In this document: one piece after another, positions 9,225 to 63,999 of the stretch | Position numbering within the stretch: the first letter of the stretch is position 1 | Layout: each line of letters begins with the position of its first letter | Virus record (IMG/VR): IMGVR_UViG_3300042260_000713 | Coordinates: 1 to 64,000 of that record | Origin: a virus | Length of the DNA: 64,000 nt | Strand: one strand, 5' to 3' | Translations under genes and position numbers: made by a program | Notes under the pieces: model-generated | What the model saw: only the letters and a program-made list of their open reading frames with translations | Database searches by the model: none | What the model was told of the DNA's origin: nothing

Positions 9225-11578
9225 GGCCGGCCCCCAAAACGACGATCGAGCTCGCGCCGCATCCGATCAAGATCACTCTGGCCGAAGATGGCATCGCGCG
9301 CTGCCGCGGCCCGGGCCAGCACTTCCGGCGTGAGCGGCGGCTCCAGGCCCACCCGGGGATCCCGCAGGGCCATGTCGTAGGGCATGCCCTCCTCTCTCTT
9401 AATCCTGTTGGCTTCCACAATCCGGCGGCGGAACTCACCCGGCTCAAACTTCACGCCCACCTGGTCTTCGTTGGTCTCCTCCCACGCGAGGTCGTGGGCT
9501 GAGATCACGCGCTTGAAGGCCAGCTCTGCATCCCTTGCCCTCTCGCGTGCAGTGGCGACGATTTCAGAGAGGCCCTTCGCCGCTGCTGGCAGCCGCTGCG
9601 CCTGGCCAGCAAGGCTGAGCAGGGGGATGAGGGCATAGCCCTCGTCGCTGGCCTTCATTGCTGCACTGCGGGTGCCCTCATTCCATGGGTTGGGGGATTC
9701 TCGAACCTGCCCCCAGTCGATCAAGGCCGGTGTGCCATCCGGGCCCACCAGGATGTTGCCGCCGTGCAGGTCCCCGTGGATCAGGCCGGAGTCGGCCTGC
9801 CGGCGGGCCAGCTGCAGCGCACCCGCCACGTACCTGGCCGCGGCCTTCGGGTCCGAGAGGGTTGCCGCCGCTTCTGGGGTCAGGTCCACCGTCTGGTGGG
9901 ACGGGGTGAGCTTCGAGCCGCGCAGCATGCGGTATGCGAGGCTCCAACGGCCATCGGGCAGGTGGACAACATCTCCGATCGGCTTGGGGCCCAGGCCGAC
10001 CGCATGGGCCCGCTGCAGGTTGCGCAGCTCACGTCGGGCCACGTTCTCTCGCTGCTCGGCCAGGCCCACCCGCGGATCATCCTCTGCGGGGTCACCCATG
10101 GTGAGGCTGTTGACCTTCACCACCACAGGGCCATCGGCGGTGTCGAACTGGTAGGTCTTGCCAAACGCCCCACTGCCCAGGCTGCGCACCGGCGGCTGCC
10201 CGCGGAATCGGGGCTCTCCGCCGTCAGCCTCGAGCGTGATCTCGCCCTTGCCGGCGGCAGCGGTGGCTGCATTTCGGGCCTTCCGCTCTGCTGCCTCCCG
10301 AACCTTGCGGGCCTGGGTTTCCTGATGCAGCTGCATCAAGCGGTTCGGCGTGGCCGCGGGTTGCACCGCAGCAGCCCCTTTGCGGCAGGTGTCGCGGGGA
10401 TCGATCCAGCCCGCACCGCAGGGTTCGCCACCTCCCGGGCCGCGGCCGCCGCTTGCACCGCCCCCGGTCAAGTCCAGCGCCATCTGGCCGGGAGCCTCTT
10501 GTCGGCGACGGGCATCAAAGCGCTGTTTCAGGGCGTCGATGCGGACCTGGAGGCTGTCCAGAGTGGTGCGATCTCCGCCGCCAAACTCAGGCAGCTGCAT
10601 TGCTGCTTCGATGAACAGGCGCTCGTCGTCATCTAATTCGCTATCCATACGCCGGCGTTTTGCGATCTTGCCTCCCTTCACAAGGGCAATCCCGTCATGC
10701 CTCTGGCCAACCGGGAATTGAAAACCTAGTGCCTCGTACATTTTCTTCCGCTCTTCACCATATCCATCACCTCCATAGGCGCTGCAGGTGAGCAGTGAAC
10801 CATCAGGCATCCCCTTCAACATCTCGGCCATCTGTCGAAACACTGCGCGAGCCACCAGGGCCCCATCAGCGGGGGAGATGTCAATTCTTTTCAGGCCAGT
10901 CATAACTTCACTGGTGCCAGTGAAGAAATTCAGATCGGTGGCCACGATTTTTGGCACACCGGGGGCGTCTTCGTCGCCTGGGACCACCAGCGGATTTACC
11001 CCTACTTCCTTGCCCAGCTCAGCAGCTCGACGGTGGATGCTGGTTGACCAGACATAACTGGCATCAGGATCTCGGAGTCTGACGTTGGTGATTTGCCCGA
11101 ACACCCCGGCGTGAATCGTTCTGGTCTCAGTGTTGCCGCCGCTGATCTCAACGGTGAATTCGCGCTGAAGCTGGTCTTTTCGCGGGCGACCGCTCCCACT
11201 ACGCGGTGGGTCCGTTGACTTGATGCTGATTTTTGCCTTTCTGCGGTCAGCTGCCTCAGCGGCAGTGGCGGCGATAGTTTGCCGGGCGGTCTTGCGCCGG
11301 TTCAGAAGCTCTTGAGCCTTGCTGCCGCGGGCGCTGCGCAACTCCTGGGCCATCTCGCCGGCCTCGCCGGCCTTGACCGTGCCGATGCCCCGCTGGTTGG
11401 AGGGACCTCCGGCCGCCAGGGCCATGAGCCGCTTCAGGCGCTCCTTGCCGATTGCCGATCCCGGCCTGGTGCGGCATTCCTTCCGCAGGCTGATGCACGT
11501 GGATCCGCAGCCGTAGCCGGTGCTGCACTTGCGCTTCAGGGCATCGATCCGTTCCTGCAGGCTCTCAGCCCGGTTCAT
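9221..11578 (-). CDS. Multidomain virion-module protein: N-terminal Cys4 module, DGYG/GF domain, protein-kinase-like domain
   Basis: ATGA overlap with the portal stop. Begins MNRAESLQERIDALKRKCSTGYGCGSTCISLRKECR. Kinase motifs are GSGAFGKTY...VVVKV...HGDLHGGNILV...LIDWG (about 9695-10192). Confidence 0.7.
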   Translation of the reverse strand: MNRAESLQERIDALKRKCSTGYGCGSTCISLRKECRTRPGSAIGKERLKRLMALAAGGPSNQRGIGTVKAGEAGEMAQELRSARGSKAQELLNRRKTARQTIAATAAEAADRRKAKISIKSTDPPRSGSGRPRKDQLQREFTVEISGGNTETRTIHAGVFGQITNVRLRDPDASYVWSTSIHRRAAELGKEVGVNPLVVPGDEDAPGVPKIVATDLNFFTGTSEVMTGLKRIDISPADGALVARAVFRQMAEMLKGMPDGSLLTCSAYGGDGYGEERKKMYEALGFQFPVGQRHDGIALVKGGKIAKRRRMDSELDDDERLFIEAAMQLPEFGGGDRTTLDSLQVRIDALKQRFDARRRQEAPGQMALDLTGGGASGGRGPGGGEPCGAGWIDPRDTCRKGAAAVQPAATPNRLMQLHQETQARKVREAAERKARNAATAAAGKGEITLEADGGEPRFRGQPPVRSLGSGAFGKTYQFDTADGPVVVKVNSLTMGDPAEDDPRVGLAEQRENVARRELRNLQRAHAVGLGPKPIGDVVHLPDGRWSLAYRMLRGSKLTPSHQTVDLTPEAAATLSDPKAAARYVAGALQLARRQADSGLIHGDLHGGNILVGPDGTPALIDWGQVRESPNPWNEGTRSAAMKASDEGYALIPLLSLAGQAQRLPAAAKGLSEIVATARERARDAELAFKRVISAHDLAWEETNEDQVGVKFEPGEFRRRIVEANRIKREEGMPYDMALRDPRVGLEPPLTPEVLARAAAARDAIFGQSDLDRMRRELDRRFGGRP
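11405..11563 (-). repeat. Cys4-module repeat, copy 1
   Basis: Encodes SLQERIDALKRKCSTGYGCGSTCISLRKECRTRPGSAIGKERLKRLMALAAGG. DNA is similar to 53149-53307, 60082-60240, 62107-62268 and 63478-63612. Confidence 0.85.
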
Positions 11579-13569
11579 GCCTCTGCCCCATCTGCAGGAA
11601 GGTAGGCATCGCACAGGGCGCCCATCGCCACCAGGTCGACGGCGTCGATCCGGCGGATGGTGGGGGTGGGGCCAACGGCATCGCGCACGCCCCGCAGGTG
11701 CTGGTGGCCCAGGGCCAGCAGGTAGGCGCCGCTGGATGCCTCGAACACCTCCCAGGCGCCGCTCAGATCCGGTCCCACCGCCACGGGATAGGGGAGGGTC
11801 TGTCCGTAGGGGCCCTGCAGGCGGCCGATGCCCGGGCCATCCATCCGCACGCTCACCCCGAGGATCTGATGGATCTGGCCGGCGGCATCGTTGCGGGGCT
11901 GCTCATCCCGGCGGCGGCGGCGGCGCGCGCGGTGCTCGGTGATCTGCTCGGCCAGGGCCTGGGCCCGCTCCTCGCAGGCGTCACAGCAGGGCTCGTCGTC
12001 GGCATCGGTGCGGGGCGGGGTCTCAGGCGGTGCGGTGCCCTCCAGGCCCTCCAGCCCGGCATCACCGCCGGCGGCCGGAGCCTCCCCGGTGGCCTGGGCC
12101 TCCCCGGGGGCCGCGGCCGGATCGCCCCCGAGGGTGCCGCCGAACTCCACCGGGGCAGGCTGCTCCGGCTGCGGGATCGAACCATCGGCCTCGCGGTTCA
12201 GCAGGGTGGTGTCGAGGGAGAACCGAGGCTTCCCGAACCGCGCCAGCGCCACCTCGTTGGGCTGCAGCACACCGCCGGTGATGTACTGGCTGTCGGCCGC
12301 GGCCACCTTCTGCCGCAGCTCCGCCTGTTCATCATCCGTTGGGGTGTAGGTGGGCCGGAAGGTGATCTCCCAGTCTTGCGGCGGGGCCTTGCCCTTCCAG
12401 GGGCCATCGGAGCAGGCCATCACCAGCTCGTAGATGCGCCGGAGGGGTTCCTTCAGGTGCTGGGCCTGCCAGTCAGCCACCTCGTTGCCGAAGGCCGCCT
12501 GCTCGCTGCGGCCATCGGCGCCCAGGCCCGAGGGGCTCTCACCCCACAGCAGGGTGTGAGGGAGGCCAGAGGCGCCGGTGATCTCCGATTTCAGGCTGGC
12601 GAGGATGTCGGCGATGCCGGCGGCGGAGCGGGTGAAGTGGGTCAGCTCCTCGTTGTCGTTCAGCAGGTAGGCGCCGATGGTGGAGCGGGCCAGGGCGTTG
12701 GCCTGCAGGCGCTGGCGCAGCTTGTCCTCTCCGCCGGCGGCGAGCATGTTGGAGAGGCCTGGGAGCTTGTGCACCACCAGGTCGAAGTCGTGGAGAATGT
12801 CGGCGGCGCTCTGCTGGCCGGTTTCGTAGCGCTTGAACACGTCCCAGACCAGATCCACCACCGACACGCCCCACCACTGCCGCTCCTGCTGGGAACGCCA
12901 GCTGCAGGGCAGACCCTCGATGCGGATCACCCGGCTGCTGTGGATCTCGATCTGGGTGGCATCGGTGAGGCCCAGGCCGGCGCTGGTGACCTGCTTGGCG
13001 CCGGCCTCCGTTTCGAGCTTCTGGAGGTCGCGATCGGCCTGGGTCCAGAACCAGTACCGCTCCGGTTCACCGATGCCCGACCAGCCGGCAGCGGGGTAGA
13101 GGCGCCAGCGATCGATTGGGTAGAGGCCGTGGATGGTGCGCAGCCGCTTGAGGTTCAGCGGCTGATCGATGGGCGTTCGGTCGTCGGCGATCACGATGAT
13201 CGCGCCGCCGCCGTAGAGGCGGCTGTAGGTGGCGGCCTGGGCCAGGGCCTGGCGAAGGTGCAGCTTCTCCGTCCAGCCCACCACGTCGTCGAGCTGCTTC
13301 TTCATGCGGCTGGAGGTTTCATCCCCCACGCTCAAATCCCAGCCGCTGCGGGTGCCCTGCTGGGGCAGCTTCTCGACGATGCGGCGGATCAGCCAGCTCT
13401 GTTCGTAGAGGGCATCGATTGCGGCCTCAGAGAGGATGCGTGATCGCTTGACGCCGATCGCTTCGTTTCGGTCCTTGGCGGTGCCCAGGCCGGTGAGCAC
13501 GTTGATCAGCGCACCATCAAGGCGATACCCGGCGCCGGGGTCATTCGACTGCAGGAAACCGATCGCCAC
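11575..13569 (-). CDS. Portal protein (DUF1073-like)
   Basis: 664 aa. N-terminus ...LDGALINVLTGLGTAKDRNEAIG...ALYEQSWLIRRIVEKLP is typical of this portal family. Lies next to the terminase and head genes. Confidence 0.75.
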   Translation of the reverse strand: MAIGFLQSNDPGAGYRLDGALINVLTGLGTAKDRNEAIGVKRSRILSEAAIDALYEQSWLIRRIVEKLPQQGTRSGWDLSVGDETSSRMKKQLDDVVGWTEKLHLRQALAQAATYSRLYGGGAIIVIADDRTPIDQPLNLKRLRTIHGLYPIDRWRLYPAAGWSGIGEPERYWFWTQADRDLQKLETEAGAKQVTSAGLGLTDATQIEIHSSRVIRIEGLPCSWRSQQERQWWGVSVVDLVWDVFKRYETGQQSAADILHDFDLVVHKLPGLSNMLAAGGEDKLRQRLQANALARSTIGAYLLNDNEELTHFTRSAAGIADILASLKSEITGASGLPHTLLWGESPSGLGADGRSEQAAFGNEVADWQAQHLKEPLRRIYELVMACSDGPWKGKAPPQDWEITFRPTYTPTDDEQAELRQKVAAADSQYITGGVLQPNEVALARFGKPRFSLDTTLLNREADGSIPQPEQPAPVEFGGTLGGDPAAAPGEAQATGEAPAAGGDAGLEGLEGTAPPETPPRTDADDEPCCDACEERAQALAEQITEHRARRRRRRDEQPRNDAAGQIHQILGVSVRMDGPGIGRLQGPYGQTLPYPVAVGPDLSGAWEVFEASSGAYLLALGHQHLRGVRDAVGPTPTIRRIDAVDLVAMGALCDAYLPADGAEA

Positions 13570-13618
13570 GGGCCGATGCGCACAGGGCCAGGGTAGGCCG
13601 CATCACACAGGGACAACC

Positions 13619-13647
13619 TTGGCCGGGGATGTTACAACCCATAGGCT
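13619..13647 (+). promoter_or_regulatory. Candidate sigma-70-type promoter for the plus-strand island
   Basis: TTGGCC (13619-13624), a 17-nt spacer, then TAGGCT (13642-13647). This is 24 nt upstream of the GTG at 13671. Confidence 0.3.
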
Positions 13648-13670
13648 GGTAGGACATCTGATCTAACCCG

Positions 13671-14657
13671 GTGAGCTCGCCGCTGGATGCGATGCTGCAG
13701 GCCTACGGGCGGCTGCCGATCCCCACTCGGGAGGAGCAGGTGTTGCTGGGCCGCAAGATTCGCGCCTGGCTGGACTGGGAGCCATCGCTGGAAGAGCAGG
13801 AGCAGGGCATCACCGAACCTCCGCAGCGGCTGCGGCGGGCGGGGATGCGGGCGCGGGAGCAACTGATCAGCAGGAACATGCTGCTGGTGGCGGACCAGGC
13901 CCGTTCGTTCTCGGTGAGCTCCACACCGGCGCTGGAGCTGCAGGATCTGATCCAGGAGGGTGCGATCGGGCTGTGCCGGGCGGCGGAGCTGTTTGATCCC
14001 GCCCTGGGCTATGCCTTCTCCACCTATGCGGTGCTGTGGATCCGGCAGAGCATGACGCGGCTGGTGCATGGCTCTGGAGCGATTCATATCCCAACGAAGC
14101 GATCGCAGGCGATGCACGGCCTGCGGAAGTGGTGCGAGGCCTTCACTGTGCGAGAGGGCAGGTTGCCCACCGATGCCGAGCAGCTGGCGGCAGGCCTCAC
14201 CGGCGTGCAACGGCCCGGTGACCTGAGGATCTTGCGGGAGGCTGCGGCCGTCTACCAGCTGCGCTCTCTCGATGTGTTGATCGGTGATGAGGATGGCGAC
14301 ACCTGGTTGAGCACCGTGGCGGCCCCGGCGGATGACCATCAGCCATCTGCCAGCGACAGGGAGTTCGATCAGGTGCTGCACTTCCTGCGGCCCTGGCCGG
14401 TGCTGCAGGAAGTGATGGAGCGACGCCTGGCGGGCCAGCCGTTCTGGGAGATCAGTGAAGCGATGGGGATGAGCGAGCGAGCAGCGATTCGCCGCGGCCG
14501 GCAAGCGCTGGCGATGGCGCAGCTGCTGGCGCGTGCGAGCGCCGAGGCCAAGGGAGAGGAGCAGCAGGAAGAGGAGCAGCAGGAGGAGCTTCCAGCGGAA
14601 CCGGCGGCGGTGGTGTACGTGCAGCCGTCTCTGCTGCCAGACCTGGTGCCTGCCTAG
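13671..14657 (+). CDS. RNA polymerase sigma factor, sigma-70 family
   Basis: Region 2: DLIQEGAIGLCRAAELFDPALGYAFSTYAVLWIRQSMTRLV. Region 4 HTH: FWEISEAMGMSERAAIRRGRQALAMAQ. Acidic C-terminal tail. Confidence 0.85.
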   Translation: MSSPLDAMLQAYGRLPIPTREEQVLLGRKIRAWLDWEPSLEEQEQGITEPPQRLRRAGMRAREQLISRNMLLVADQARSFSVSSTPALELQDLIQEGAIGLCRAAELFDPALGYAFSTYAVLWIRQSMTRLVHGSGAIHIPTKRSQAMHGLRKWCEAFTVREGRLPTDAEQLAAGLTGVQRPGDLRILREAAAVYQLRSLDVLIGDEDGDTWLSTVAAPADDHQPSASDREFDQVLHFLRPWPVLQEVMERRLAGQPFWEISEAMGMSERAAIRRGRQALAMAQLLARASAEAKGEEQQEEEQQEELPAEPAAVVYVQPSLLPDLVPA

Positions 14658-14712
14658 CACGTATGTTCCATTCCGAGGTAGAGTTGACCCGAAACAAGGC
14701 CATCGCGATTCC

Positions 14713-14985
14713 ATGCCGGCAAAGGCGCAACACTCCAGGCCCACCACGGAGACAGAGCAGGGGCTCACGGAAATGCAGCAGCGCACCCTGGATGCAGTAA
14801 GGGCCTACATCGATGCCAACGGCATCAGCCCGACCCTGAAGGATCTGCAAAAAGCGCTGGGGCTGTCATCTGTCAGCCCAGTGCAATACCACCTGAGGAA
14901 CCTGCAGGCTGCTGGGGCGATTGATCAGCGCCACGGTGTGCCTCGCAGTATTCGGGTGTTGTGGCCTCGCCCTGAGGCGGACTGA
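14713..14985 (+). CDS. LexA N-terminal DNA-binding-domain-like protein with no peptidase domain
   Basis: MQQRTLDAVRAYIDANGISPTLKDLQKALGLSSVSPVQYHLRNLQAAGAIDQRHGVPRSIRVL parallels the LexA winged-helix domain. The start is ATG 14713 or 14773. The ORF stops immediately after the domain. Confidence 0.65.
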   Translation: MPAKAQHSRPTTETEQGLTEMQQRTLDAVRAYIDANGISPTLKDLQKALGLSSVSPVQYHLRNLQAAGAIDQRHGVPRSIRVLWPRPEAD

Positions 14986-15230
14986 TGGGCTGGGGTCAGC
15001 TGCCAGAGGTGCCGGCCGAGCCTGGCCCCATTGCGCTTACAGATGCCCAGGCCTTTGAGGTGGAGCGGTTTTCCCGGGCCATTGATGCCACCTCTGATCT
15101 GGCCGATCTGCAGGGCCTGTGCAAGCAGCTGTTGCAGGCCTGGATGGCACAGAAGGCCGCGACCTGCTGGGTCATGCGCCAAAGCCTGTCAGGGCCTGGT
15201 CCAAACCACCGGCTTTCGGAGGATTCCTGA
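14985..15230 (+). CDS. NblA-like small protein, paralog 1
   Basis: ATGA overlap. IALTDAQAFEVERFSRAIDATSDLADLQGLCKQLLQAWMAQK follows the NblA pattern L-S/T-x-x-Q-x-F-x-[IV]-x-x-F...S. Shares the MGWGQ N-terminus with the next ORF. Confidence 0.45.
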   Translation: MGWGQLPEVPAEPGPIALTDAQAFEVERFSRAIDATSDLADLQGLCKQLLQAWMAQKAATCWVMRQSLSGPGPNHRLSEDS

Positions 15231-15550
15231 TGGGCTGGGGGCAATGGCGAGTGCCGGAGCTGAGCGAAGAAGATCGCTTTGCCTTGCGCGTACTGGAGCT
15301 AGAGCTTCGCAAGACATTGGACCGCCATCCCAAAAGTTTGCTTCGGATGTGCGTGGTGCTGTCAGAGCAGTGCCGGATCAGGGACAACATCATCAACAAG
15401 GCCAGCGAGCGGATTGCCGAGCTGGAGATGAGCCAGGCCATTGCAGAGCCGGCGGCACCCCAGCAGCAGCTGCGGCGGCGGCGGGGCTGGTGGAGGCGGT
15501 GGTGGTGGCGCGGGAGTGCGATTGCCCGGGCGTTGGTGCTGGGCCAATGA
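15230..15550 (+). CDS. NblA-like small protein, paralog 2
   Basis: TGATG overlap. MGWGQWRVPELSEEDRFALRVLELELRKTLDRHPKSLLRMCVVLSEQCRIRDNIINK. Basic Arg/Trp-rich tail. Confidence 0.45.
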   Translation: MGWGQWRVPELSEEDRFALRVLELELRKTLDRHPKSLLRMCVVLSEQCRIRDNIINKASERIAELEMSQAIAEPAAPQQQLRRRRGWWRRWWWRGSAIARALVLGQ

Positions 15551-16017
15551 TCGACCCTGCCTACCTCGCCCAGCTGCGGCGCACGCTGCGGGCGGAGCAC
15601 ACGATGACGCTGGTGCAGATCGAGCAGCTGGTGCCCAACTGGTGGCCCACCATCACTGAGCTGGCGGAGCAGCTCGGGACTGAACGGGCAACGCTCAATC
15701 GTTGCCTCACCAAGCTGGAGCAGCGGGCCCTGCTGCGCCGGGTGACCCGCGGCAACGGCGGCGGCACCTGGATCTGGTGGGTGAAGCGCTCTGAGCATGA
15801 TCAGCCCGACGACAGCACCGCGCCGCGCTGGGTGTTGCGTGATCTGCAATGCCGTCGCCGGCGGGAGATCATCCTGGGGCAGGAGCGGGCCTTCGCAGAA
15901 GAACAGGGGCTGTCGTACCACACTGTCCGCAACTTCCTGGCGGGTTTCCGGCCGATGCTCGCCAAGCGCTGGCAGCTGGTCAGTTCACCCCTGCAGCTGG
16001 AGGATGAGCAGGGCTGA
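15547..16017 (+). CDS. Winged-helix (MarR-like) DNA-binding protein
   Basis: ATGA overlap. ITELAEQLGTERATLNRCLTKLEQRALLRRV is an HTH plus wing. Confidence 0.55.
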   Translation: MIDPAYLAQLRRTLRAEHTMTLVQIEQLVPNWWPTITELAEQLGTERATLNRCLTKLEQRALLRRVTRGNGGGTWIWWVKRSEHDQPDDSTAPRWVLRDLQCRRRREIILGQERAFAEEQGLSYHTVRNFLAGFRPMLAKRWQLVSSPLQLEDEQG

Positions 16018-16028
16018 GCCGCACCAGT

Positions 16029-17585
16029 TCAGACCATGTGGATCCAGTCGGCAATCATCGGCCGCACCCTGGCGCCGGCTTCGCAGGCGGCAGCCAGGCT
16101 CATCACGGCGTCATCGTGGCAACCGGCCGCGGCCTCGCGGGTGCCATCGGCCCCCTGGCGGAACACGCGCATCTGTTCGCCGTAGATGCTGTGATGCGGG
16201 AAGCCCAGCTCACCCTGCTCGAGCAGCAGCAGCACCCGGTCGGTCATGGTGATCTTGCTGGCCTTGCCGGTGTGGAACTCTTCGATGGGCACCCCGGGCC
16301 GCAGGCGGGCCAGTGACTCGCCGACAGCGGCGCCGACCCCGTTCTTCTCGATCATCACCAGCTCGGGGTTGTACTGATCCATCAGGCGCGCAGTGCGCTG
16401 CAGGCCGTAGTCGCGGCTGCGGCGCGCGTCGTTGAAGTAGGCCACCACCTGCCAGGGGTTGGTGGTGACATCGAGCACGGTGGTAACCCATTCGTCGTCG
16501 CCGGAGCCGTTCGGGTCGATCCCGATCACGTAGTTATGGCCCCTGGTGGGCAGATCCACCCCGCCGATGGCCTCGGCGGCCTCGATCAGGTCGTGCGGGT
16601 AGACCTCGGCATCGGTGGCGGCGAAGTCGAGCTCGAACTCCTGCCGGTAGCGCTGCTCGGTGAGCTGGAACTTGCGCCGGGTGTTCTCCGCGTAGTTGGG
16701 GTCCTGGCTGTAGATCGGGTGCTGGCTCCAGTGGATCGCAACCTTTGCGAAGCCACCGCAGGGGCTGCAGCGGAGGATCGGAATGCCGTTGACGGTGGCC
16801 TCGCCGATCTGCTGCTCGCCGTGGTCGGTGCTCCAGTGCTCATGGAACCGGCCACTGCGGCCGTTGGGGGTGCTCACCCACACGGCGCGGGCGCGGGGGC
16901 CCAGCAGGCTGAGGGTGGGCATGGCGCCGGTCTCGATGCCCCCCAGCTTTTCGATGAAGGCACCCTCGTCAAACAGCACGAAGGATGCGGATGGGATGCC
17001 CCGGGCGGCCCGTTCGGTGGGAGGGAGGAAGTGGAGGCTGCCGCGGCCCTGAAAGACCAGTTTGCGGGCGGAGTCCTTCGGGAGGGGCGGGCAGGCGGCG
17101 CCCAAGCTGGCGGCCTGGCCCTTGATCCGTGCCGCCAGCTCGGAGGCATCTTCTCCGGTCTTGGAGAAGATGATCCCCACCCAGGCCGGCCGCTGGATGG
17201 CCTGCTGCAACATGTAGCTGATCACCGTCTCGCTCACGCCGGTCTGGCGGCTCTTGAGCACGTAGATGTTCTGGTAGGCGCGGATCGTGCGCACCAGCGC
17301 CAGCTGGTAGTCCCAGGCCCTGAACGGCAGATACTTGCCCTGGGAGGCGATGAAGGTGCGGGCGGCGAAGTCGGGCCAGCGCTTGGGTAGCTGATCCCAC
17401 AGCTGCACCGCCTGCTCCTGGGAGAACAGGCCGCGGCGGGGGAGGTACTGCAGCGCCGGCCGCACCACCTTCTTGCGGGGCAGGTGGAGGCCCGTGGCGC
17501 CCCTGCTGCGGGGCCAGGCATAGCAGGGTGTCTGGGTGCGGAGCTGGGCCTCGTAGTCGGCCCAGGCCTCGTCATCCCAGGCCAT
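16029..17585 (-). CDS. terL: Terminase large subunit
   Basis: 518 aa. Walker A-like YVLKSRQTGVSE, Walker B VLFDEGAF, and a C-terminal nuclease-like VIGIDPNGSGDDEW. Confidence 0.85.
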   Translation of the reverse strand: MAWDDEAWADYEAQLRTQTPCYAWPRSRGATGLHLPRKKVVRPALQYLPRRGLFSQEQAVQLWDQLPKRWPDFAARTFIASQGKYLPFRAWDYQLALVRTIRAYQNIYVLKSRQTGVSETVISYMLQQAIQRPAWVGIIFSKTGEDASELAARIKGQAASLGAACPPLPKDSARKLVFQGRGSLHFLPPTERAARGIPSASFVLFDEGAFIEKLGGIETGAMPTLSLLGPRARAVWVSTPNGRSGRFHEHWSTDHGEQQIGEATVNGIPILRCSPCGGFAKVAIHWSQHPIYSQDPNYAENTRRKFQLTEQRYRQEFELDFAATDAEVYPHDLIEAAEAIGGVDLPTRGHNYVIGIDPNGSGDDEWVTTVLDVTTNPWQVVAYFNDARRSRDYGLQRTARLMDQYNPELVMIEKNGVGAAVGESLARLRPGVPIEEFHTGKASKITMTDRVLLLLEQGELGFPHHSIYGEQMRVFRQGADGTREAAAGCHDDAVMSLAAACEAGARVRPMIADWIHMV

Positions 17586-56091: not shown

Positions 56092-56093
56092 GG

Positions 56094-56640: not shown

Positions 56641-57576
56641 TCAGCCGCCGTCCTGGATGTAGAGGAACGCCAGGGGGAAATCGGGGATGAAGCCGCCGAT
56701 CTTGCTCATCGACGGCACCACGAACTTGAGATTGCGCGGCTGGGGCGGCAGGAAGGTGAGGGGCAGGGGGATGTGGAACTTGCCCTTGGTGGGATCCTTC
56801 TTGTAGAAGAGCATCCGCCGGGCGCTCAGGTTGCCGCCGCTGTTGGCTGGGTCGAGCTCGTTGATCGGCTCCACCGATTTGATGCCGGGGTTCATCTTCA
56901 GGAACAGCTCCAGCACCGTGGTGTTGTCGGTGGTGGACCGGCAGGTGGTTGAGACGATCCGGTGATCCGACTCAGCCATCAGCACGGAGTCGGGCTGCTC
57001 GATCTGCTTGCTGTTGGCACGCATCTGGGTGACGCCGAAGTTCAGCAGATCCAGCATCTGCTGGGGGGTGGTGTTGGCGTCGTTGAACCAGGCGTCGCTG
57101 TTGTTGCCCGTCACCACCACACGATCGATGGCAGGGTGGTTGAGCATGCCCCGCAGGCCGGTGCCGGCACGGCCGAACAAGCAAGTGAGGTTGTTGCGGC
57201 GCTCGTAGGCGTCGCGCACAGCATCGGCCCTCTCGGTGGTGAGGTTGACGCCGGCCATCTTCGCGGCCAGCAGCTCGCCCTGGGTGTAGTCGAACGAGCC
57301 GCCGAACTCGCGGATCTCGTTGACGATCTCACCCACCTTCACGCCGGAACGGGGCAAATCGTCGGCCGCATCGGCAATCAGATCAAAGGCGCCGGTGCGA
57401 TCCCACAGCGTGCGCTTGATCGAGGTGGCGCCGGGATTCACCTCGAAGGAAACGGGGCAGATCCGGGGGTAGACGATCTCGGCATAGGGTTTGCGCAGCA
57501 CACCGGGGATGATGTGCTGCAGCTGGTCGGCCAGGAACGCCCCACTCTGGTAGGCGTCGTCCATTCGGTGGCTCAT
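56641..57576 (-). CDS. Major capsid protein (DUF2184-like, HK97-fold class)
   Basis: 311 aa. Pattern and position match the DUF2213/DUF2184 head gene set: scaffold/protease gene, then a small gene, then the capsid gene. Confidence 0.7.
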   Translation of the reverse strand: MSHRMDDAYQSGAFLADQLQHIIPGVLRKPYAEIVYPRICPVSFEVNPGATSIKRTLWDRTGAFDLIADAADDLPRSGVKVGEIVNEIREFGGSFDYTQGELLAAKMAGVNLTTERADAVRDAYERRNNLTCLFGRAGTGLRGMLNHPAIDRVVVTGNNSDAWFNDANTTPQQMLDLLNFGVTQMRANSKQIEQPDSVLMAESDHRIVSTTCRSTTDNTTVLELFLKMNPGIKSVEPINELDPANSGGNLSARRMLFYKKDPTKGKFHIPLPLTFLPPQPRNLKFVVPSMSKIGGFIPDFPLAFLYIQDGG

Positions 57577-58240: not shown

Positions 58241-59551
58241 TCAGCTGGCGGGGGCCTGCCAGGCGTTGGCCAGCGCTTGCTGGTGCTCCGCCGCGGCCGC
58301 CGCGATGCCATCGGCGCCGTCGGTGCGGGGGGCGGTGGTGATGCCCTGCAGCTGGCGGGCCAGCAGCTGGGCGGCATCGGCCTGGTAGGGCACTTTGTCG
58401 GCGGCCTCGTAGGCGGCATCGAACCTGGCGGCGATGTACTCGTCGCTGCGGTTCTCGATGCCATCGATCCGCACCTCGGCGGCCTCCAGGGCCAGCTCCT
58501 GCACCTCGCGGTTGCTGAGGCCGTCGTGCCGCTCGCGCTTGCCGCCCATGATCAGGCTGGCCTTCTCCAGCACGTCAACCCGCTCGGCCACCAGCTGCTC
58601 AATCAGGGCCGGATCGGGCGCAGGGGCGGAATCCGCCCGCTCGGCCACCAGGGCCTCCAGCTCGCTCAGCTGCTCAGAGAGGCTATCGAAGCGCAGCTCA
58701 GCCGCGGCCAGATCATCGACGGTGGCCTTGTAGACCTCCCAGGGCACGCTGCGGCCTGGGGTGGCGGAATCGCCACGGGCCTTCTTGCCCTTGGTCATGC
58801 CGTAGCCGTCTTCCTTCTCCTGGTCGTCGTCGCCGGCCATGTTGTCGTCGCCTTCCATGTCTTCGGGATCCATCTCGTCGTTGTCCTTGGCCTTGGCGTC
58901 GGCTTTGCCGGCGGGCTTCATGTCGGCACGGTCGGTGGTTTGAGCGGGGGCGGGCATGGGGGTGGCCTCAGGAAGGGAAGGGAGGAGATCGGCGGAGACG
59001 GCGACAATCGGCGGGTCGTCGGCATCGGCGGAGTCGAAGTGCAGGCACACTTCGGATCCCGCGCGGGCCTTGCGGGTGACGGCGAGATGGTTGCCGCTGA
59101 TGTTCCGCTGCACGCCGTCGTATCGGGTGCCATCAGGGGCTGTGCCGGGGGTGGGGTCGTACTCGCAGCGGTAGCCCACGGAGAGCTCCACCGCATCGCG
59201 GCGCTTGACGGCCTCGATTGCCTCGCGATCCGTCAAGGTGACGGTGCCATGCACAAACCCGTCGGTGAACTCCACCTGGGTGCCGCTGTGGCCCCGGGTG
59301 TGTTGCCGCACAGTGTCGGGCGTGAGCAGCTGGGGCGGATGCTCCAGCGTCACCGGCAGGCCGCCCATCGACAGGAGGGAATCCGGGCGGGACACCTCCT
59401 CCGGGGGCCGATATTCGACCCGCTTTGACCCATCCGGGTTGGTGTAGGTCTGGCAGCCGCTGCGGGAGAACGTCCCACGCACGCGCACGTAGCCCTCTGG
59501 GGTTTCCAGAAAGCTGGCGGGCAGGGTGGAGCGATCGAAGCGGAATTGCAC
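58241..59551 (-). CDS. Prohead scaffold/protease-like protein (DUF2213-like)
   Basis: GGLPVTLEHPP...ELSVGYRCEYD...YDGVQRNISGNHLAVTRKARAG, then an acidic, helical scaffold-like C-terminal half. GTG start. Confidence 0.65.
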   Translation of the reverse strand: MQFRFDRSTLPASFLETPEGYVRVRGTFSRSGCQTYTNPDGSKRVEYRPPEEVSRPDSLLSMGGLPVTLEHPPQLLTPDTVRQHTRGHSGTQVEFTDGFVHGTVTLTDREAIEAVKRRDAVELSVGYRCEYDPTPGTAPDGTRYDGVQRNISGNHLAVTRKARAGSEVCLHFDSADADDPPIVAVSADLLPSLPEATPMPAPAQTTDRADMKPAGKADAKAKDNDEMDPEDMEGDDNMAGDDDQEKEDGYGMTKGKKARGDSATPGRSVPWEVYKATVDDLAAAELRFDSLSEQLSELEALVAERADSAPAPDPALIEQLVAERVDVLEKASLIMGGKRERHDGLSNREVQELALEAAEVRIDGIENRSDEYIAARFDAAYEAADKVPYQADAAQLLARQLQGITTAPRTDGADGIAAAAAEHQQALANAWQAPAS

Positions 59552-59626: not shown

Positions 59627-59854
59627 GTGCCTACTCTCCTGCCAGACGCAATGGTGCGGCGCCTGTTGGGTGCACGGTTGGGCGTGATTATGGAGCAGCG
59701 GGGCGTGAGCCAGCAGCAGCTGGCGCAGCACCTGGAGGTGCACCGCAGCGCCGTGAGCCGCTGGTGCTCCGGCGAGCGGGATCCCAACCCCGGGCAGCTG
59801 CGCTCGATCTGCCTGCTGCTGGCGATCGACCCGTCCCTGCTGCTGGGGCTCTGA
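59627..59854 (+). CDS. XRE-family (Cro/CI-type) HTH regulator
   Basis: RLGVIMEQRGVSQQQLAQHLEVHRSAVSRWCSGERDPNPGQLRSICLLL. Start is GTG 59627 or ATG 59651. Confidence 0.75.
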   Translation: MPTLLPDAMVRRLLGARLGVIMEQRGVSQQQLAQHLEVHRSAVSRWCSGERDPNPGQLRSICLLLAIDPSLLLGL

Positions 59855-60019
59855 TCAGCCCTTGGCCTGGGGCTGGCCCTGGCGGGCGCTGGCCACCGGA
59901 GGCGCCTGCTGGAGGCGCAGCATCACTTCGGTCTCCACGGCCACGTTGTCCCAGTCGATGGGCTCGGCATCGGCCCGGGGGGCCTGGGGGACGGTGCTGC
60001 GGTGCTGCGGGGTGCTCAT
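59855..60019 (-). CDS. Small hypothetical protein (below the ORF-track cutoff)
   Basis: Hand-translated 54 aa, MSTPQHRSTVPQAPRADAEPIDWDNVAVETEVMLRLQQ.... ATGA overlap with the giant ORF stop. Confidence 0.3.
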   Translation of the reverse strand: MSTPQHRSTVPQAPRADAEPIDWDNVAVETEVMLRLQQAPPVASARQGQPQAKG

Positions 60020-63000
60020 CGGGCCAGGGGGATGGGGTGGTTAGCAGGTCCGTGCACCGTCAGCAGCCGGTAGATCAGGGCGCCGCCGGCCGCCAGCTGC
60101 ATGAGCCGCTTGAGCCGCTCCTTGGCGATCGCCGATCCGGGCCTGATGCGACACTCCTTCTGCAGGCTGATACAGGTGCTGCCGCAGCCGTAGCCCGTTG
60201 CGCACTTCCGCTTGAGGGCGTCGATTCGGGCATCCAGGATGTCGGCAGCGGCATCGCGGCGCTCGCTGCTGCCGAGAGTCAGGAGAGCAAAGAGCAGGCC
60301 TTCCAGATCGATCTCATCGCCTGCATCGTGGCGATCGCCGCGGGCACCTTCGATGCGGCTGAGCTTGCCGTTGCGAACCACAGCAATCCCAGTGCCACCG
60401 ATGAAGGTGAATCCTGCCCTCTTGTAGAGCGATTGGCGTTTGTCCCCATAGCCATCGTCCTGATGGGCCTTGCAGATCACGATCTGGCCCTCCTCCAGAT
60501 TCGATATCACAGCCTTCACCTGCTTTGAGACCTCCTTGGCAAACCGTTGGGCCACGTCCTTTGGCAGGGCAATCCGATCCGCACCCATGAAGGCCTCGCC
60601 ACCACCGACGCCGGTCAGCCAGGCCAACTCCAGAGCATTGTTGACCTGCCTGTTGTTCAGAGCGATGCCCTGCTCTCCCAGCTTTCTGGCTATGGGTTTG
60701 GCGTTGGCCTCATCCATTGCGACCTGGAATGAGAGCTTGTCAACCAGACGGGGCTCCTTTCCGGGTCGTGCCGACAGGCGGAGAGGTTTCTCAAGCTGCA
60801 CCTCGTATCGGGATTCGTGCCAGACGATGCCCTTGCCACCGGCGCCTGGAACCTCCTCCTTTTCCACTTGCTTCACGCCCCATTTCTGGGGTCCGCGGCT
60901 GAGGATCTCCTCTTCGCGCGCCTTCTCTTTGGCCTGCCTATCGCTTTCTTCTTGTTTGCGAGCGGCCGCCAGCTGTTGAATGCGGGCAGCGGAGGCCATC
61001 ACATCTCCCTCTGATGCCTTCTCACCACGGCCCAGCAACCGCCGTCCCAGCCGTCTGAAACCTTGTCCAACGCCGCGCGCGACGCCGGCCCGGATTCCCT
61101 GGCGGCAGTCGCCGCTGGTGCCGTAATGGCTGCCATCGGGTCGCCTGCAGCGCTGATCCATGCGAGCACGCAGCACTGTCAGACGATCGATCGCATCATC
61201 GAATCGGTCATCAGCCGCATCACGTCGACGTTTGCTGCCGCCAAGGCGCCGCCGCGGCCGGCCACCACCCAGGGTTGGATCCGCGCCGCCCTGGGCGCCA
61301 AACTGCTCCTCCGCCTGGATGCGCAGATCGATGGATTGGCGCTGCAGGTCCTCCAGCCGCTGGTCCTGAGCCTTCATGTCCTCGAGGATGCTCTTCATGG
61401 CGCCGGCGACGCTGCCGGAGGCCCCGGCACGTTGGCGCATGGCAGCGGAGTTGGCGGCAGCTTCGGGTGAGGCAGCCTGCTGTTGCATCTTCTGCATGAA
61501 CTCCACCTTGAACTGCTCGCGCGCCTGGTCTTTGCTCATGCCCCGGTAGCGGGTGCGGCGATCAATCGACCAGCCGGCCTCGAAGAGGTTCTCGGCGATC
61601 TTGCCCATCTGGCGGGCGTCGGCGGCTTTCAGCTGCTCGGTGGTCGCGCGTAGCACGTCGCTGATCTTCGGTGCCTGCTGCGGCCCGGCGGCAGCAGCAG
61701 GCTGCTGGAACAGCGGCATGGTCTGGTCGTATTCGGTGACGCCGAACAGCGAGCTCTGGCTCTGTTTGGTGGTGGCGAGGGCGTTGGCCAGTCGGTTGCG
61801 CTCCACCGTGCGCTCCTCCTTGCGCCAGGCCTGGGCGCCCTCCTGATCCCCGGCGGCCTTGGCGGCCTGCTGCTGCTGCCTGGCAAAGGCGGCCTGCTGG
61901 CTGCTGGTGGTCACGTCCTGGGCGTTGAGGCCGGGCTGTGCCGGCTTGCGGGCAGGGCCTGGGGCCTGGCGGCCTGGGTTGGTGAGCATCGGCCGGCGCA
62001 CACCCCGCAGCTCTGCTGCCCGCTGGGCCCGGCTGGCGGTGATGCCCTGGGCCATCTCGCCGGCCTCGCTGGCCTTCATGGTGCCGATGCCCCGCTGGTT
62101 GGAGCTGCCTCCGGCCGCCAGCTCCATAAGGCGCTTGAGCCGCTCCTTGCCGATCGCACTGCCCGGGGTGGTGCGGCACTCCTTCTGCAGGCTGATGCAC
62201 GTTGCCCCGCATCCGTAGCCCGTTGCGCACTTCCGCTTGAGGGCGTCGATCCGCTGCTGCAGGCTGTCGGCCCGTGGCCGCTTGCGCAGGCCCAGTGTCA
62301 CCAGCTCCTGCTCCACCGCGGCAAACACATCCCGCTCCAGCTCCTGCCGCACCTTCGCCTCGGATTCGCCGGCCTCCACCCGATCGGCAGCACGGTTGAG
62401 GGCGGAGCTGATCGGCCCGCTGGAGCTCTTCAGACGCTCGAAGACCGACAGGGCCTCGCTGGCCTCGCCGGCCACCCTGGCGCTCTGCTCCTGGTTGATC
62501 ACGTTGCCAGCCTTCTCGGCAAGGGTGGAGGCGGCCCTGGCCTTAGAGACGGTGCCGAACAGGCGCTTCTCCCTGCTGATCTTGGCCTTCAGGCCAGCGG
62601 CCAGCTTGGCCCGGGTGAACAGGTTGTCCGTGGCCTCCTGGCTCATTCCGAAGAGGTCCATCGTGGTCTGGGTGCGTTGCTCACTGGCAGCGGCATGCTC
62701 CACTAGCTCGAGCAGGGTCTGATCGGCGATGCCCTTGCGGGCCTTAACCATCTTGAACACCTCCCGCTGCTTCGCCTCATCGAGGCCGCTGCCGCCGATG
62801 ATCGCGCCGCGATTCACGCTCAGATCACCGCGCACTACTGCGCTGAACACTTCGTCGGGTAGCTTGCTGAGCTTGAGGCCCTTCTCCGCCTGGCCGCTGC
62901 GCAAGGGAAGGCCCCTGGCCTCCACGTCCGCCTGGGATCTGATGCCGGTGTCGCGGAAGAACTTGGCAGCATCCATCGGGGTGCCGGCGCCTTGGGCGAT

Positions 63001-63999
63001 GTTTTGCATGGCGCCGATCGCCCTGGCCTCAGTGGCAGTCTTTGCGTTGAGAAACCGCACGGTCACCTCTTCGGCACCAAGGCGGTTGGCCAGGTTCAAA
63101 CGGTTGTGGCCGTTCACCACGTAGACCTTGCCGTCGGCGGGATCCTTCCAGACGCTCATTACGCCGGCGAGGTTGGGGTCCCACTTGCGCACGCCCGAAA
63201 GGCTGCCCACATCGCCGGTGCCAGCGGTCGCGTTGATCTTGTACTGAAACCTGGATGGATCGAAAGCGATCTCATCGGGCTTCATGTTGCGGACGGTGCC
63301 GGGCTCCGTTGAAGCGCTGGCGGCCTCGGGCAGCTTGCCGGTGCGCAGGTACTCGGCGATCTCGGGCCGGGCCAGCAGCTTCTCCACCCGCTTGGTGGTG
63401 CGCTCCTTCTGCCGTTCTCCCGCAGCCACATCCCGAGCGGCCGACACCTGCGAAGCAGTGGCCTCGGCGGCCTTGTCGCCCCCGGCCGCCAGCTGCTGCA
63501 GTCGCCGCAGGCGGGCCTTGCCCATGGCGCTGGAGGGGCTGATCCGGCATTCCTTCTGCAGGGAGATGCAGGCCGCGCCGCAGCTGTAGCCGGTGGAGCA
63601 TTTGCGTTTCTGCCCCGCAGTGGCCCCGCTGCCCTGGCGAAAGTCCATCCGGGCGGCCGGAGCGCGGAGCTCGAGGAACGAATCGGAGCGCAGCTCCCAG
63701 CCCCTCTGCTGCACCCCCTCCCAAGCGGGCCGGTAGCCCACGCCATCACCATCCACCCGGAAGCGGTAGACAAGCCCATCGGCTGCCATCCGCCCGGCAT
63801 GGCCGACGCCATCCTGCCGCCAGTCGAGCAGCTGCGCGCCGGGCAGCACCTCCGCCAGCAGGGCCTGCAGCACCGGCGACACCGGATCGGCCGCGTCATG
63901 GCGGCGCGTGGGACGGCAACGGGGCTTGGGACCGGGACAAAGCGCCAGCTGGGCTTCGATGGCGGTGAGCCGATCCTGCAGGGCCTGGTAACGGCTCAT
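60016..63999 (-). CDS. Giant polyvalent-like protein: three Cys4 modules, ParB/Srx-like domain, DGYG/GF domain (5' end may lie beyond the window)
   Basis: At least 1327 aa. ParB-like: IAFDPSRFQYKIN...KVYVVNGHNRLNLANRLGAEEVTVRFL (about 63010-63294). Cys4 modules at aa 130-174, 578-631 and 1254-1306. VICKAHQDDGYGDKRQSLYKRAGFTF parallels the kinase-protein segment LTCSAYGGDGYGEERKKMYEALGFQF. Confidence 0.7.
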   Translation of the reverse strand: MSRYQALQDRLTAIEAQLALCPGPKPRCRPTRRHDAADPVSPVLQALLAEVLPGAQLLDWRQDGVGHAGRMAADGLVYRFRVDGDGVGYRPAWEGVQQRGWELRSDSFLELRAPAARMDFRQGSGATAGQKRKCSTGYSCGAACISLQKECRISPSSAMGKARLRRLQQLAAGGDKAAEATASQVSAARDVAAGERQKERTTKRVEKLLARPEIAEYLRTGKLPEAASASTEPGTVRNMKPDEIAFDPSRFQYKINATAGTGDVGSLSGVRKWDPNLAGVMSVWKDPADGKVYVVNGHNRLNLANRLGAEEVTVRFLNAKTATEARAIGAMQNIAQGAGTPMDAAKFFRDTGIRSQADVEARGLPLRSGQAEKGLKLSKLPDEVFSAVVRGDLSVNRGAIIGGSGLDEAKQREVFKMVKARKGIADQTLLELVEHAAASEQRTQTTMDLFGMSQEATDNLFTRAKLAAGLKAKISREKRLFGTVSKARAASTLAEKAGNVINQEQSARVAGEASEALSVFERLKSSSGPISSALNRAADRVEAGESEAKVRQELERDVFAAVEQELVTLGLRKRPRADSLQQRIDALKRKCATGYGCGATCISLQKECRTTPGSAIGKERLKRLMELAAGGSSNQRGIGTMKASEAGEMAQGITASRAQRAAELRGVRRPMLTNPGRQAPGPARKPAQPGLNAQDVTTSSQQAAFARQQQQAAKAAGDQEGAQAWRKEERTVERNRLANALATTKQSQSSLFGVTEYDQTMPLFQQPAAAAGPQQAPKISDVLRATTEQLKAADARQMGKIAENLFEAGWSIDRRTRYRGMSKDQAREQFKVEFMQKMQQQAASPEAAANSAAMRQRAGASGSVAGAMKSILEDMKAQDQRLEDLQRQSIDLRIQAEEQFGAQGGADPTLGGGRPRRRLGGSKRRRDAADDRFDDAIDRLTVLRARMDQRCRRPDGSHYGTSGDCRQGIRAGVARGVGQGFRRLGRRLLGRGEKASEGDVMASAARIQQLAAARKQEESDRQAKEKAREEEILSRGPQKWGVKQVEKEEVPGAGGKGIVWHESRYEVQLEKPLRLSARPGKEPRLVDKLSFQVAMDEANAKPIARKLGEQGIALNNRQVNNALELAWLTGVGGGEAFMGADRIALPKDVAQRFAKEVSKQVKAVISNLEEGQIVICKAHQDDGYGDKRQSLYKRAGFTFIGGTGIAVVRNGKLSRIEGARGDRHDAGDEIDLEGLLFALLTLGSSERRDAAADILDARIDALKRKCATGYGCGSTCISLQKECRIRPGSAIAKERLKRLMQLAAGGALIYRLLTVHGPANHPIPLAR
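60082..60240 (-). repeat. Cys4-module repeat, copy 5 (C-terminal copy in the giant ORF)
   Basis: Encodes ILDARIDALKRKCATGYGCGSTCISLQKECRIRPGSAIAKERLKRLMQLAAGG. Confidence 0.85.
62107..62268 (-). repeat. Cys4-module repeat, copy 4
   Basis: Encodes DSLQQRIDALKRKCATGYGCGATCISLQKECRTTPGSAIGKERLKRLMELAAGG. Confidence 0.85.
63478..63612 (-). repeat. Cys4-module repeat, copy 3 (the most divergent)
   Basis: Encodes GQKRKCSTGYSCGAACISLQKECRISPSSAMGKARLRRLQQLAAGG. Confidence 0.8.

Follow-up and report, generated by a model that had tools for sequence, protein, structure and literature searches.

A Recurrent Basic Four-Cysteine Domain in Putative Cargo Proteins of Cyanophage Heads

The virus record IMGVR_UViG_3300042260_000713 (positions 1 to 64,000; this 64,000-nucleotide stretch, analyzed here as a whole, is called the window) carries five copies of a short module with four cysteines in three genes, namely, a kinase gene, a gene for a protein of 255 amino acids (aa), and a giant open reading frame (ORF). 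The window has 65.6% G+C, bears its main genes on the minus strand, and is a segment of a phage genome of the S-CBS4/PaV-LD-like cyanosiphophage type. The nearest isolate by capsid protein is the Synechococcus siphophage S-CBS4 (46.8% aa identity). Megablast of 12 kb of the window against phage and plasmid collections gave no match, and an exact-sequence look-up of the 255-aa protein returned only a 2-kb Logan contig. The three carrier genes, the five module copies (A to E), and the degenerate relatives are as follows.

9221 to 11578, minus strand: kinase carrier gene, encoding the module, an unknown domain X, a degenerate module, and an APH/RIO-like kinase (aa 585-642).
11291 to 11572, minus strand: copy A, 94 aa long with its extended tail, forming the N-terminal part of the kinase carrier; four-Cys core at 11474-11527.
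10295 to 10561, minus strand: degenerate module in the kinase carrier (aa 352-440), of which the leader LQVRIDALKQRFDA and a stretch with two cysteines, CGAGWIDPRDTC, remain.
52555 to 53322, minus strand: 255-aa carrier gene, with copy B at the N-terminus, downstream of the gene for an Ig-like (Big_5) tail protein.
53038 to 53316, minus strand: copy B, likewise with the extended tail, forming the N-terminal part of the 255-aa protein.
60016 to 63999, minus strand: giant carrier of 1327 aa, isoelectric point (pI) 9.9, upstream of the prohead protease.
63478 to 63651, minus strand: copy C, of divergent type, giant aa 117-174; leader RMDF 11 residues before the first Cys.
61993 to 62274, minus strand: copy D with extended tail, giant aa 576-669.
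61102 to 61203, minus strand: degenerate leader with two-Cys remnant in the giant ORF, aa 933-966 (RARMDQRC...C).
60082 to 60246, minus strand: copy E, giant aa 1252-1306; the stop codon follows 21 residues later.
9027 to 9083, minus strand: leader-like helix LQARVDALRARC at the C-terminus of a 66-aa ORF (9024-9224).

The original prediction, made from the letters of the window, had reported five in-frame copies on the same strand. The ranges that it quoted encode its peptide on the minus strand and translate into nonsense on the plus strand; it had not named the strand, and its "same-strand" description holds because all genes of this region lie on the minus strand. The pattern C-x5-C-x3-C-x6-C has exactly 5 matches in the six-frame translation of the window, all in minus-strand ORFs (the giant-ORF copies start at aa 134, 591, and 1266 of 1327), against a mean of 0.09 and a maximum of 1 in 100 shuffled windows. 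The window copies share the form K-R-K-C-x5-C-G-x2-C-I-x5-C...LAAGG. Pairwise identity among four of them (all but 63478-63612) is 77 to 82% at the nucleotide level and 83 to 91% at the aa level, and copy C has 60 to 64% nucleotide identity to the others, so that the earlier figure of roughly 80 to 90% was an overestimate. Copies A, B, and D exceed the unit length proposed earlier and share a longer unit of approximately 94 aa (76 to 80% identity) with the extra conserved tail GG(P/S)SxQRGIGTxKAxEAGEMA. The module is a self-contained cassette of approximately 55 aa, or approximately 95 aa in its long form. Among the degenerate relatives named in the original prediction, those in the kinase carrier, at the end of the 66-aa ORF, and at giant aa 933-966 were recovered, but the N-terminus of the giant ORF bears only a weak resemblance to the module leader. 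A fusion by frameshift of the 66-aa ORF to the neighboring MuF gene was dropped, as the module continuation is absent from every frame.

The consensus of the wider family reads R-Φ-D-A-x-K-[RK]-[KR]-C-x-[TK]-G-Y-x-C-G-x-[TS]-C-I-[SP]-x-x-K-E-C-R…G-K-E-R-L-x-R-L-x-x-L-A, where Φ is a hydrophobic residue. In 99 diverse copies the four cysteines are invariant, Gly after the second Cys is conserved in 99% and Ile after the third in 92%, and the spacing C-x5-C-x3-C-x6-C has variants of x4-7 / x3 / x5-7. That the module is no named domain, as had been supposed, was confirmed by database searches. Two module sequences matched 0 Pfam families at an E value of ≤10, and the whole giant and 255-aa proteins matched none in a Pfam scan; NCBIfam gave only far sub-threshold matches (E values of 0.03 to 0.14; cut-off, 30 bits); PDB profile searches gave only spurious or nonsignificant matches; and Foldseek of the model against PDB and BFVD found no significant neighbor, with one protein from PaV-LD, judged by accession, among the weak BFVD rows. 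Two candidates were rejected: a lanthipeptide-type precursor (TIGR04363; E value of 0.03, far under the cut-off) and designed armadillo repeats in the PDB, where 0 stretches passed and the matches were compositional (LKRL...LAAGG helix) and vanished with a broader profile. In PHROGs, the module lies inside phrog_33618 (unknown function) and phrog_16619 ("minor head protein," a MuF-containing profile of 1440 positions). The giant ORF matches phrog_33618 in 3 stretches (profile 15-69; E value of 8.9e-24) and phrog_16619 at profile 671-743 (E value of 1.2e-12), and the 255-aa and kinase proteins match both as well. Besides, neither the text of the polyvalent-protein survey (PMC5512222) nor that of a later viral ADP-ribosylation survey mentions the module.

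AlphaFold2 reached a predicted local distance difference test score (pLDDT) of 52 on 5 near-identical rows and of 70 on a 99-row alignment of database matches, with 76 to 81 in the core. The latter model comprises a helix (2-13), a beta-hairpin (21-23/26-28) that holds the second and third Cys, and two further helices (44-54 and 69-76). The domain lacks the paired CxxC ligands of classical zinc knuckles and zinc ribbons, and none of the Pfam, PDB, and Foldseek searches links it to them. The four-Cys mini-domain probably holds a metal, either zinc or an Fe-S cluster. The module is best classed as a new domain and cassette, restricted in lineage, that belongs to the familiar field of effectors packaged in phage heads.

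Among GenBank phages, tblastn found the module in cyanophages only. Planktothrix phage PaV-LD has one copy per gene in seven genes (ORF061R, 065R, 078R-081R, and 085R), and eight copies are spread over ORF044, 045, 047, and (several times) ORF048 of Aphanizomenon phage CL131. In the Synechococcus myophage S-CBWM1, gp106 and a RIO-like kinase both carry the module N-terminally. The annotated start of this kinase (record 70464) seems to lie too far downstream, and an upstream in-frame ATG (70398-70463) adds MSKRCTKGKSCGATCISSMKAC, which is the module. A scan of IMG/VR found 66 loci with the module, and an iterated hidden Markov model gave 207 copies in 124 ORFs of 71 loci, which consist of the 66 IMG/VR loci, the cyanophage loci, and the window. 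HMMER returned only 124 of 1.84 billion representative proteins at an E value of ≤0.001, all but three of them with the four-Cys pattern; a word-indexed protein search, run with profiles of 5 and of 45 sequences, retrieved no more than two short fragments from metagenomes, its index being unsuited to so short a domain. In 185,579 species genomes, strong matches to a degenerate DNA pattern were confined to contigs from cyanobacterial bins (Cyanobium, with one bin from Lake Mendota, Trichocoleus, Jaaginema, Leptolyngbyaceae, Spirulina, and Chroococcidiopsis), apart from two contigs binned with a Sphingobacterium metagenome-assembled genome (MAG). Related contigs were binned with Cyanobium and with Planktothrix-, Aphanizomenon-, and Leptolyngbya-type hosts.

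Outside phages, a weakly related Cys motif (CC-R-V-C-x2-G-Y-A-C-G-x2-C-I-S-R-x3-C-H-x3-G-C-A-C) occurs in short proteobacterial and myxobacterial ORFs, and a second form, tandem C-x2-G-K-P-C-G-D-T-C-I-x5-C-H repeats, occurs in a protein of 74 aa whose start resembles a signal peptide. Neither form matched a family in Pfam or NCBIfam. The phage domain may derive from, or have the same fold as, a small secreted Cys-rich repeat.

The module stands 5 to 35 aa from the N-terminus in single-unit proteins and recurs every 300 to 700 aa in giant ORFs (124 carrier ORFs at 71 loci and the 124 database proteins), and adjacent genes often have one copy each. The idea that it marks unit boundaries in multidomain proteins of the virion gene module is borne out. 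Fusion partners recognized by Pfam in the 124 carriers are DnaJ (9 members), DUF676/lipase/alpha/beta-hydrolase domains, Peptidase_M90/ATLF zincins, ADP-ribosyltransferases (ADPrib_exo_Tox, ART, and DRAT), Pkinase/APH/ABC1 kinases, LRAT, LPD1, ParB_N, and a Mu-type portal. In the portal-containing relative, the Mu-type portal domain (aa 4-296) comes first and two module-led units follow; in CL131 ORF048, modules alternate with several hydrolase domains; PaV-LD ORF079R has an ART domain; and the S-CBWM1 kinase has the same module-kinase arrangement as the window. This set of partners is the repertoire of head-packaged and polyvalent effectors (PMC5512222 and PMC9503650). In phages of filamentous cyanobacteria, namely, in CL131 (6182-11617) and in related metagenomic proteins, a hydrophobic, transmembrane-like segment follows within 30 to 45 residues of the module and precedes a lipase/esterase domain; virion-packaged hydrolases that insert into membranes would be unusual.

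Carrier genes sit in head and tail morphogenesis blocks, and the products of those of CL131 occur in particles. Liquid chromatography-tandem mass spectrometry of CsCl-purified CL131 particles identified 23 virion proteins, including all four module carriers (PMC6293099, Table S5): ORF044 (9 peptides, 9 peptide-spectrum matches [PSMs], 46% coverage, pI 9.5), ORF045 (33 peptides, 123 PSMs, 56% coverage, pI 9.7), ORF047 (14 peptides, 24 PSMs, 38% coverage, pI 9.1), and ORF048 (105 peptides, 175 PSMs, 55% coverage, pI 9.3). The major capsid protein had 86 PSMs in the same data set (PMC6293099). Since all four were detected, the carriers are virion components in at least one phage. Furthermore, they are basic. 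The median net charge of the modules, taken over 46 residues, is +7, and the carriers have a median pI of 9.7, with 92% above 8.5 and those of the window at 9.5 to 9.9. The head proteins of the window have lower values (scaffold-protease, pI 4.6; portal, pI 5.1; and capsid protein, pI 6.2). The head genes of the window are as follows.

6824 to 9031, minus strand: MuF-like minor head protein with an intein-like insert, in the same head-cargo gene block.
11575 to 13569, minus strand: portal protein, PF06381, directly upstream of the kinase carrier.
16029 to 17585: large terminase.
56641 to 57576, minus strand: major capsid protein, PF09950/DUF2184, with the N-terminus MSHRMDD.
58241 to 59551, minus strand: fusion of a DUF2213 prohead protease with an acidic scaffold (pI 4.6).

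The stop codon of the portal gene overlaps the most likely start of the kinase carrier, the ATG at 11578 (MNRAESLQ...), as ATGA (11575-11578), which implies that this cargo gene is translationally coupled to the portal gene.

The module is preceded by a leader that recurs in the head proteins. R-x-D lies at most 22 residues upstream of the first Cys in 129 of 150 modules (86%), compared with 7% of control windows, with a preference for R-[LIM]-D-A placed five residues ahead of that Cys. An internal translation start at the Met nine residues upstream of the module was dropped as a candidate, this Met being the Φ of R-M-D. In 17 protease-scaffold homologues, R[AILMFVW]D[ASG] was observed 61 times in the scaffold part against 2.85 expected (21-fold) and 5 times against 1.97 in the protease domains. 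The carriers have 223 against 33 expected (104 against 27 with the modules removed), and other ORFs of at least 300 aa have 145 against 67; because these sequences are mutually related, the ratios do not rest on independent counts. The scaffold part of the window has four R-Φ-D-[ASG] motifs (aa 287, 305, 361, and 376), and the PaV-LD protease-scaffold protein has eight. An R-x-D also borders the conserved core of the capsid protein on its N-terminal side in strongly diverged homologues: MSHRMDD in the window, MSHRLDN and MAIRNDA in other contigs of its clade, TTRLDAD in PaV-LD, EIRMDAP in CL131, MSEFRMDE in S-CBS4, and FRADAATG, after a 40-residue extension, in the Escherichia coli phage BUCT618. 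The segment before R-x-D is 3 to 44 aa long and variable in sequence.

Classical substrates of prohead proteases are the scaffold, the N-terminus of the capsid protein, and internal proteins. Because the motif recurs in these three places, R-Φ-D followed by A, S, or G is probably, judging from sequence, the recognition site of the DUF2213 protease, with cleavage after the Asp. As an alternative, the R-Φ-D-A leader may be a scaffold-like docking helix that mimics the scaffold repeats. A literature search for a published cleavage specificity of DUF2213/DUF2184 systems, or for virion data on PaV-LD or S-CBWM1, gave nothing usable. Two isolates bear on the relation of leader and core. S-CBS4 shares the head genes, with the motif retained in both capsid protein and scaffold, and its first 45 kb (the structural region) contain no Cys4 module; its portal-protease interval (7300-16884) holds glycosyl- and methyltransferases and an HNH gene instead of Cys4 carriers. 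Conversely, homologues of this head system could not be detected in the structural region of S-CBWM1, and the modules of that phage keep the Cys core and lack the leader, starting MSKRC or MSYSKRC. Both comparisons agree with a split of the module into leader and core.

Taken together, we consider that the basic four-Cys domain heads each cargo unit and acts as a metal-binding loading and retention domain that, with an adjoining protease site, serves head-packaged effectors; we give this a probability of about 0.5. The leader helix ending in R-Φ-D-A would be the cut site of the DUF2213 prohead protease, a mimic of the scaffold repeats, or both. The basic cassette would co-assemble with the acidic scaffold and the portal core in the procapsid; the protease would then degrade the scaffold and cut multi-unit precursors at R-Φ-D-A, so that each released unit starts with its own four-Cys domain. 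Cleavage of the giant ORF product would give roughly four pieces (aa 1-119, 120-585, 586-1260, and 1261-1327). Finally, the basic domain would keep its unit in the filled head, probably on the packaged DNA, and the unit would leave with the genome at infection, probably to enter the host. The packaging or ejection signal and the protease landmark named in the original prediction are the functional ideas that fit best, as homologous carriers are virion proteins and R-Φ-D-A is common to the modules, the scaffold, and the capsid N-terminus. A farther-reaching version is that leader and four-Cys domain form a portable, self-sufficient tag for capsid loading, retention, and ejection, evolved in cyanophages for interchangeable enzymes (e.g., kinases, ADP-ribosyltransferases, lipases, DnaJ, and peptidases) that the head protease sets free and that reach the host on the DNA, and distinct from the T4 capsid targeting sequence (CTS), MuF fusion, and zincin-processed polyvalent proteins; we put this forward only tentatively, as possible yet rather doubtful.

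Several points weigh against the loading and processing role, apart from the relatedness of the sequences behind the motif ratios. R-Φ-D-like strings also occur inside folded domains (e.g., at aa 116 of the major capsid protein), the scaffold occurrence AARFDA is conserved as if structural, and Pam3, of the same capsid family, has no motif at the N-terminus of its major capsid protein. S-CBS4 builds the same kind of head with no module in its first 45 kb (the structural region), and the module is therefore accessory. The structure model is of moderate confidence only, and the hydrophobic segment after CL131-type modules suggests a membrane context. Besides, a loading signal on every unit of portal-fused or multi-unit proteins seems redundant. 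Each unit keeps its copy even when joined to a portal, and therefore the Cys domain would act per unit after cleavage, in retention or co-ejection, and not just as an entry ticket; this points more to a post-cleavage role than to loading.

The per-unit copies also suit another explanation, in which the domain is a basic, metal-stabilized nucleic-acid-binding knuckle that takes the enzymes to DNA or RNA, in the host after injection or in replication, and has no role in capsid loading or processing. The median net charge of +7, the four invariant cysteines, and a compact spacing that resembles DNA-contacting Fe-S loops and zinc knuckles are in its favor, as is S-CBWM1, whose head system differs and whose modules retain the core but not the leader. 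However, sequence and fold searches match no known DNA-binding domain, and this explanation accounts neither for the tight link to an R-Φ-D-A leader that recurs in scaffold and capsid protein nor for the confinement of carriers to morphogenesis gene blocks and virions. We regard it as unlikely, although it is the strongest of the competing explanations.

Less probable still is a cytoplasm-facing juxtamembrane or membrane-targeting element, which would put injected lipases and kinases on host membranes or anchor tail or ejection proteins. The transmembrane-like segment 30 to 45 aa after the module in CL131 and several metagenomic relatives suggests such a role, the basic charge suits the positive-inside rule, lipase/esterase cargo is common, and some small bacterial proteins that appear to be secreted have related Cys motifs. 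Yet in the five window copies, and in most of the Cyanobium type, the module is not followed by a hydrophobic segment, and DnaJ, ParB-like, kinase, and ART cargo are soluble cytoplasmic types.

The original prediction had ascribed the copies to recent duplication or gene conversion and had pointed to direct repeats that could drive deletions or rearrangements. The copies are indeed all in direct orientation on one strand, D and E share an exact run of 38 bp, B and D are slightly nearer to window copies than to copies elsewhere, and only 21 codons follow copy E, which a past deletion could explain. Nevertheless, synonymous divergence (dS) between window copies is 0.46 to 1.74 and the ratio of nonsynonymous to synonymous divergence (dN/dS) is 0.07 to 0.25 (Nei-Gojobori), which contradicts a recent origin. 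The longest exact runs are 8 to 38 bp, and only 8 to 18 bp in most pairs, making the repeats poor substrates for recombination, and the kinase copy and the first giant-ORF copy have nearer counterparts in other phage contigs than inside the window. Furthermore, an orthologous ORF with modules at aa ~128 and ~585 is found on many independent IMG/VR contigs. On these values, short runs, and closer counterparts, the window copies are old paralogues under purifying selection and not recent duplicates or conversion tracts, and we consider the duplication account very improbable. The possibility of a collapsed or chimeric assembly, which had been named as a refuter, has nothing in its favor and a negligible probability, because the same architecture recurs on independent contigs (66 IMG/VR loci, cyanobacterial MAG contigs, and three isolated phages), each copy is in frame inside a long ORF, and the copies differ mostly at synonymous sites.

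The closest functional analogues of the module would be the T4 CTS, polyvalent proteins, MuF-fused toxins, and the inner-body processing of phiKZ, although by sequence it belongs neither to any of these nor to the classical zinc fingers. Mullaney and Black reportedly described the CTS of phage T4 on the internal proteins IPI-III and Alt. It is an N-terminal linear peptide of approximately 10 aa that directs unrelated proteins into the prohead scaffold core and is cut off at L/I-x-E; its cargo is basic, is injected with the DNA, and includes an ADP-ribosyltransferase. The module is likewise an N-terminal tag on otherwise unrelated basic cargo that is linked to a (here putative) prohead-protease site. 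However, the putative R-Φ-D-A site precedes a folded four-Cys domain of 40 to 50 aa that would stay on the cargo, there is no sequence similarity, the leader MNRADSLQLRIDA has R-Φ-D-A and no L/I-x-E consensus, and the protease is of the DUF2213 and not the gp21 type. In phiKZ-like phages, paralogous families of inner-body and head proteins are cut by gp175 at S/A/G-x-E, a consensus also present in scaffold-like proteins. Putative head-internal paralogues with a short consensus that recurs in the scaffold are found here as well, with putative cleavage, but motif and protease differ, phiKZ proteins have no Cys domain, and those phages are jumbo myophages, in contrast to the cyanosiphophages studied here.

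Cargo-loading peptides of encapsulins are usually C-terminal and Cys-free and bind the HK97-fold shell protomer directly, with no protease step and no DNA. The module would resemble them as a short transferable tag that docks diverse enzymes in an HK97-fold shell, but it is N-terminal on its units and has cysteines and a proposed protease step. The Fe-S loop of endonuclease III/MutY (C-x6-C-x2-C-x5-C) and the retroviral CCHC knuckles have four ligands and a basic segment that contacts nucleic acid. The module also has four ligands within approximately 18 residues and a basic segment, although C-x5-C-x3-C-x6-C fits neither spacing and homology was not detected. In the MuF-fused polymorphic toxins of temperate phages, the MuF domain itself carries effectors into the capsid. 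An effector fused to a head-internal carrier is common to both systems, and PHROG 16619 combines MuF and the module, whereas here the small Cys4 domain is found on many separate genes without MuF.

MuF-fused toxins are also summarized in PMC9503650. Polyvalent proteins are giant multidomain, virion-associated effectors encoded near portal and MuF genes, with predicted proteolytic processing (Iyer et al. 2017, PMC5512222). The domain repertoires overlap (ART, kinase, zincin peptidase, ParB, and LPD1), the window carriers flank the portal, MuF, and prohead protease genes, and homologous carriers occur in purified CL131 virions. A multidomain architecture is seen across the family (CL131 ORF048 and others), and in the window carriers Pfam recognizes a kinase domain only. 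Besides, the survey ascribes processing to embedded zincins (PMC5512222) and not to a head-protease motif; the three window carriers have no match to an HExxH-peptidase family in Pfam, although some relatives have M90/ATLF domains. The text of the survey (PMC5512222) mentions neither cysteines nor cyanophages, and its Pfam LPD families do not match the module.

As for the cargo of the window, Pfam recognizes the kinase domain alone in the three carriers, and separate cargo segments gave nothing significant in Pfam (E value of ≤0.01). The giant carrier consists of an N-terminal domain, module C, a PHROG-21/ParB-like segment (aa 226-554), module D, an unknown region with domain X, and module E; its segments match PHROG 21 only. 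Domain X relates giant aa 1122-1250 (60247-60635) to kinase-protein aa 225-365 (10520-10942) with 30% identity (E value of 6e-14). It has the signature DGYG-x-x-R-x-x-x-Y-x-x-x-GF and no Pfam match, and leader and module come next in both proteins. The MuF-like protein (6824-9031) has PF04233 at aa 234-320, an Intein_splicing match at aa 348-607 (E value of 2.8e-5, under the Pfam cut-off), and a match to PHROG 15127.

Between the giant carrier and the prohead protease, a 75-aa XRE/Cro-type helix-turn-helix gene lies on the plus strand (59627-59854; PF13560, E value of 2.9e-13, and PF01381). Copy E lies just upstream of this gene, and the mere 21 codons that follow the copy may reflect an insertion or deletion there; a regulator gene between portal and protease is also present in PaV-LD and S-CBS4. 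Tail fiber genes are also in the window, together with the following gene.

43120 to 48294, minus strand: tape-measure-like protein of 1724 aa with Peptidase_M23 at aa 1019-1102 (E value of 5e-11).

This protein has two RxDAS motifs, at aa 1013 (the start of M23) and aa 1090 (inside M23). A weak tyrosine-integrase match lies at 5138-6139 on the minus strand (PHROG 1, E value of 9e-11; under the cut-off in Pfam), and a regulator/BstA-like protein (phrog_129 and phrog_6287) is encoded at 50113-51138, also on the minus strand. Because of these two matches, the window suggests a temperate phage with moron-type inserts within its structural operon.

Head-packaged effectors decide the first minutes of an infection. 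The cassette is a sequence marker for the putatively injected arsenal of poorly studied freshwater and estuarine cyanophages, and it makes dozens of "hypothetical" giant ORFs readable as strings of module-led units. R-Φ-D is a candidate cleavage consensus for the widespread, uncharacterized DUF2213 proteases, whose associated DUF2184 capsid family matches 1020 phage records. If the proposed role is true, this small domain may also be a tag for loading foreign cargo into phage heads.

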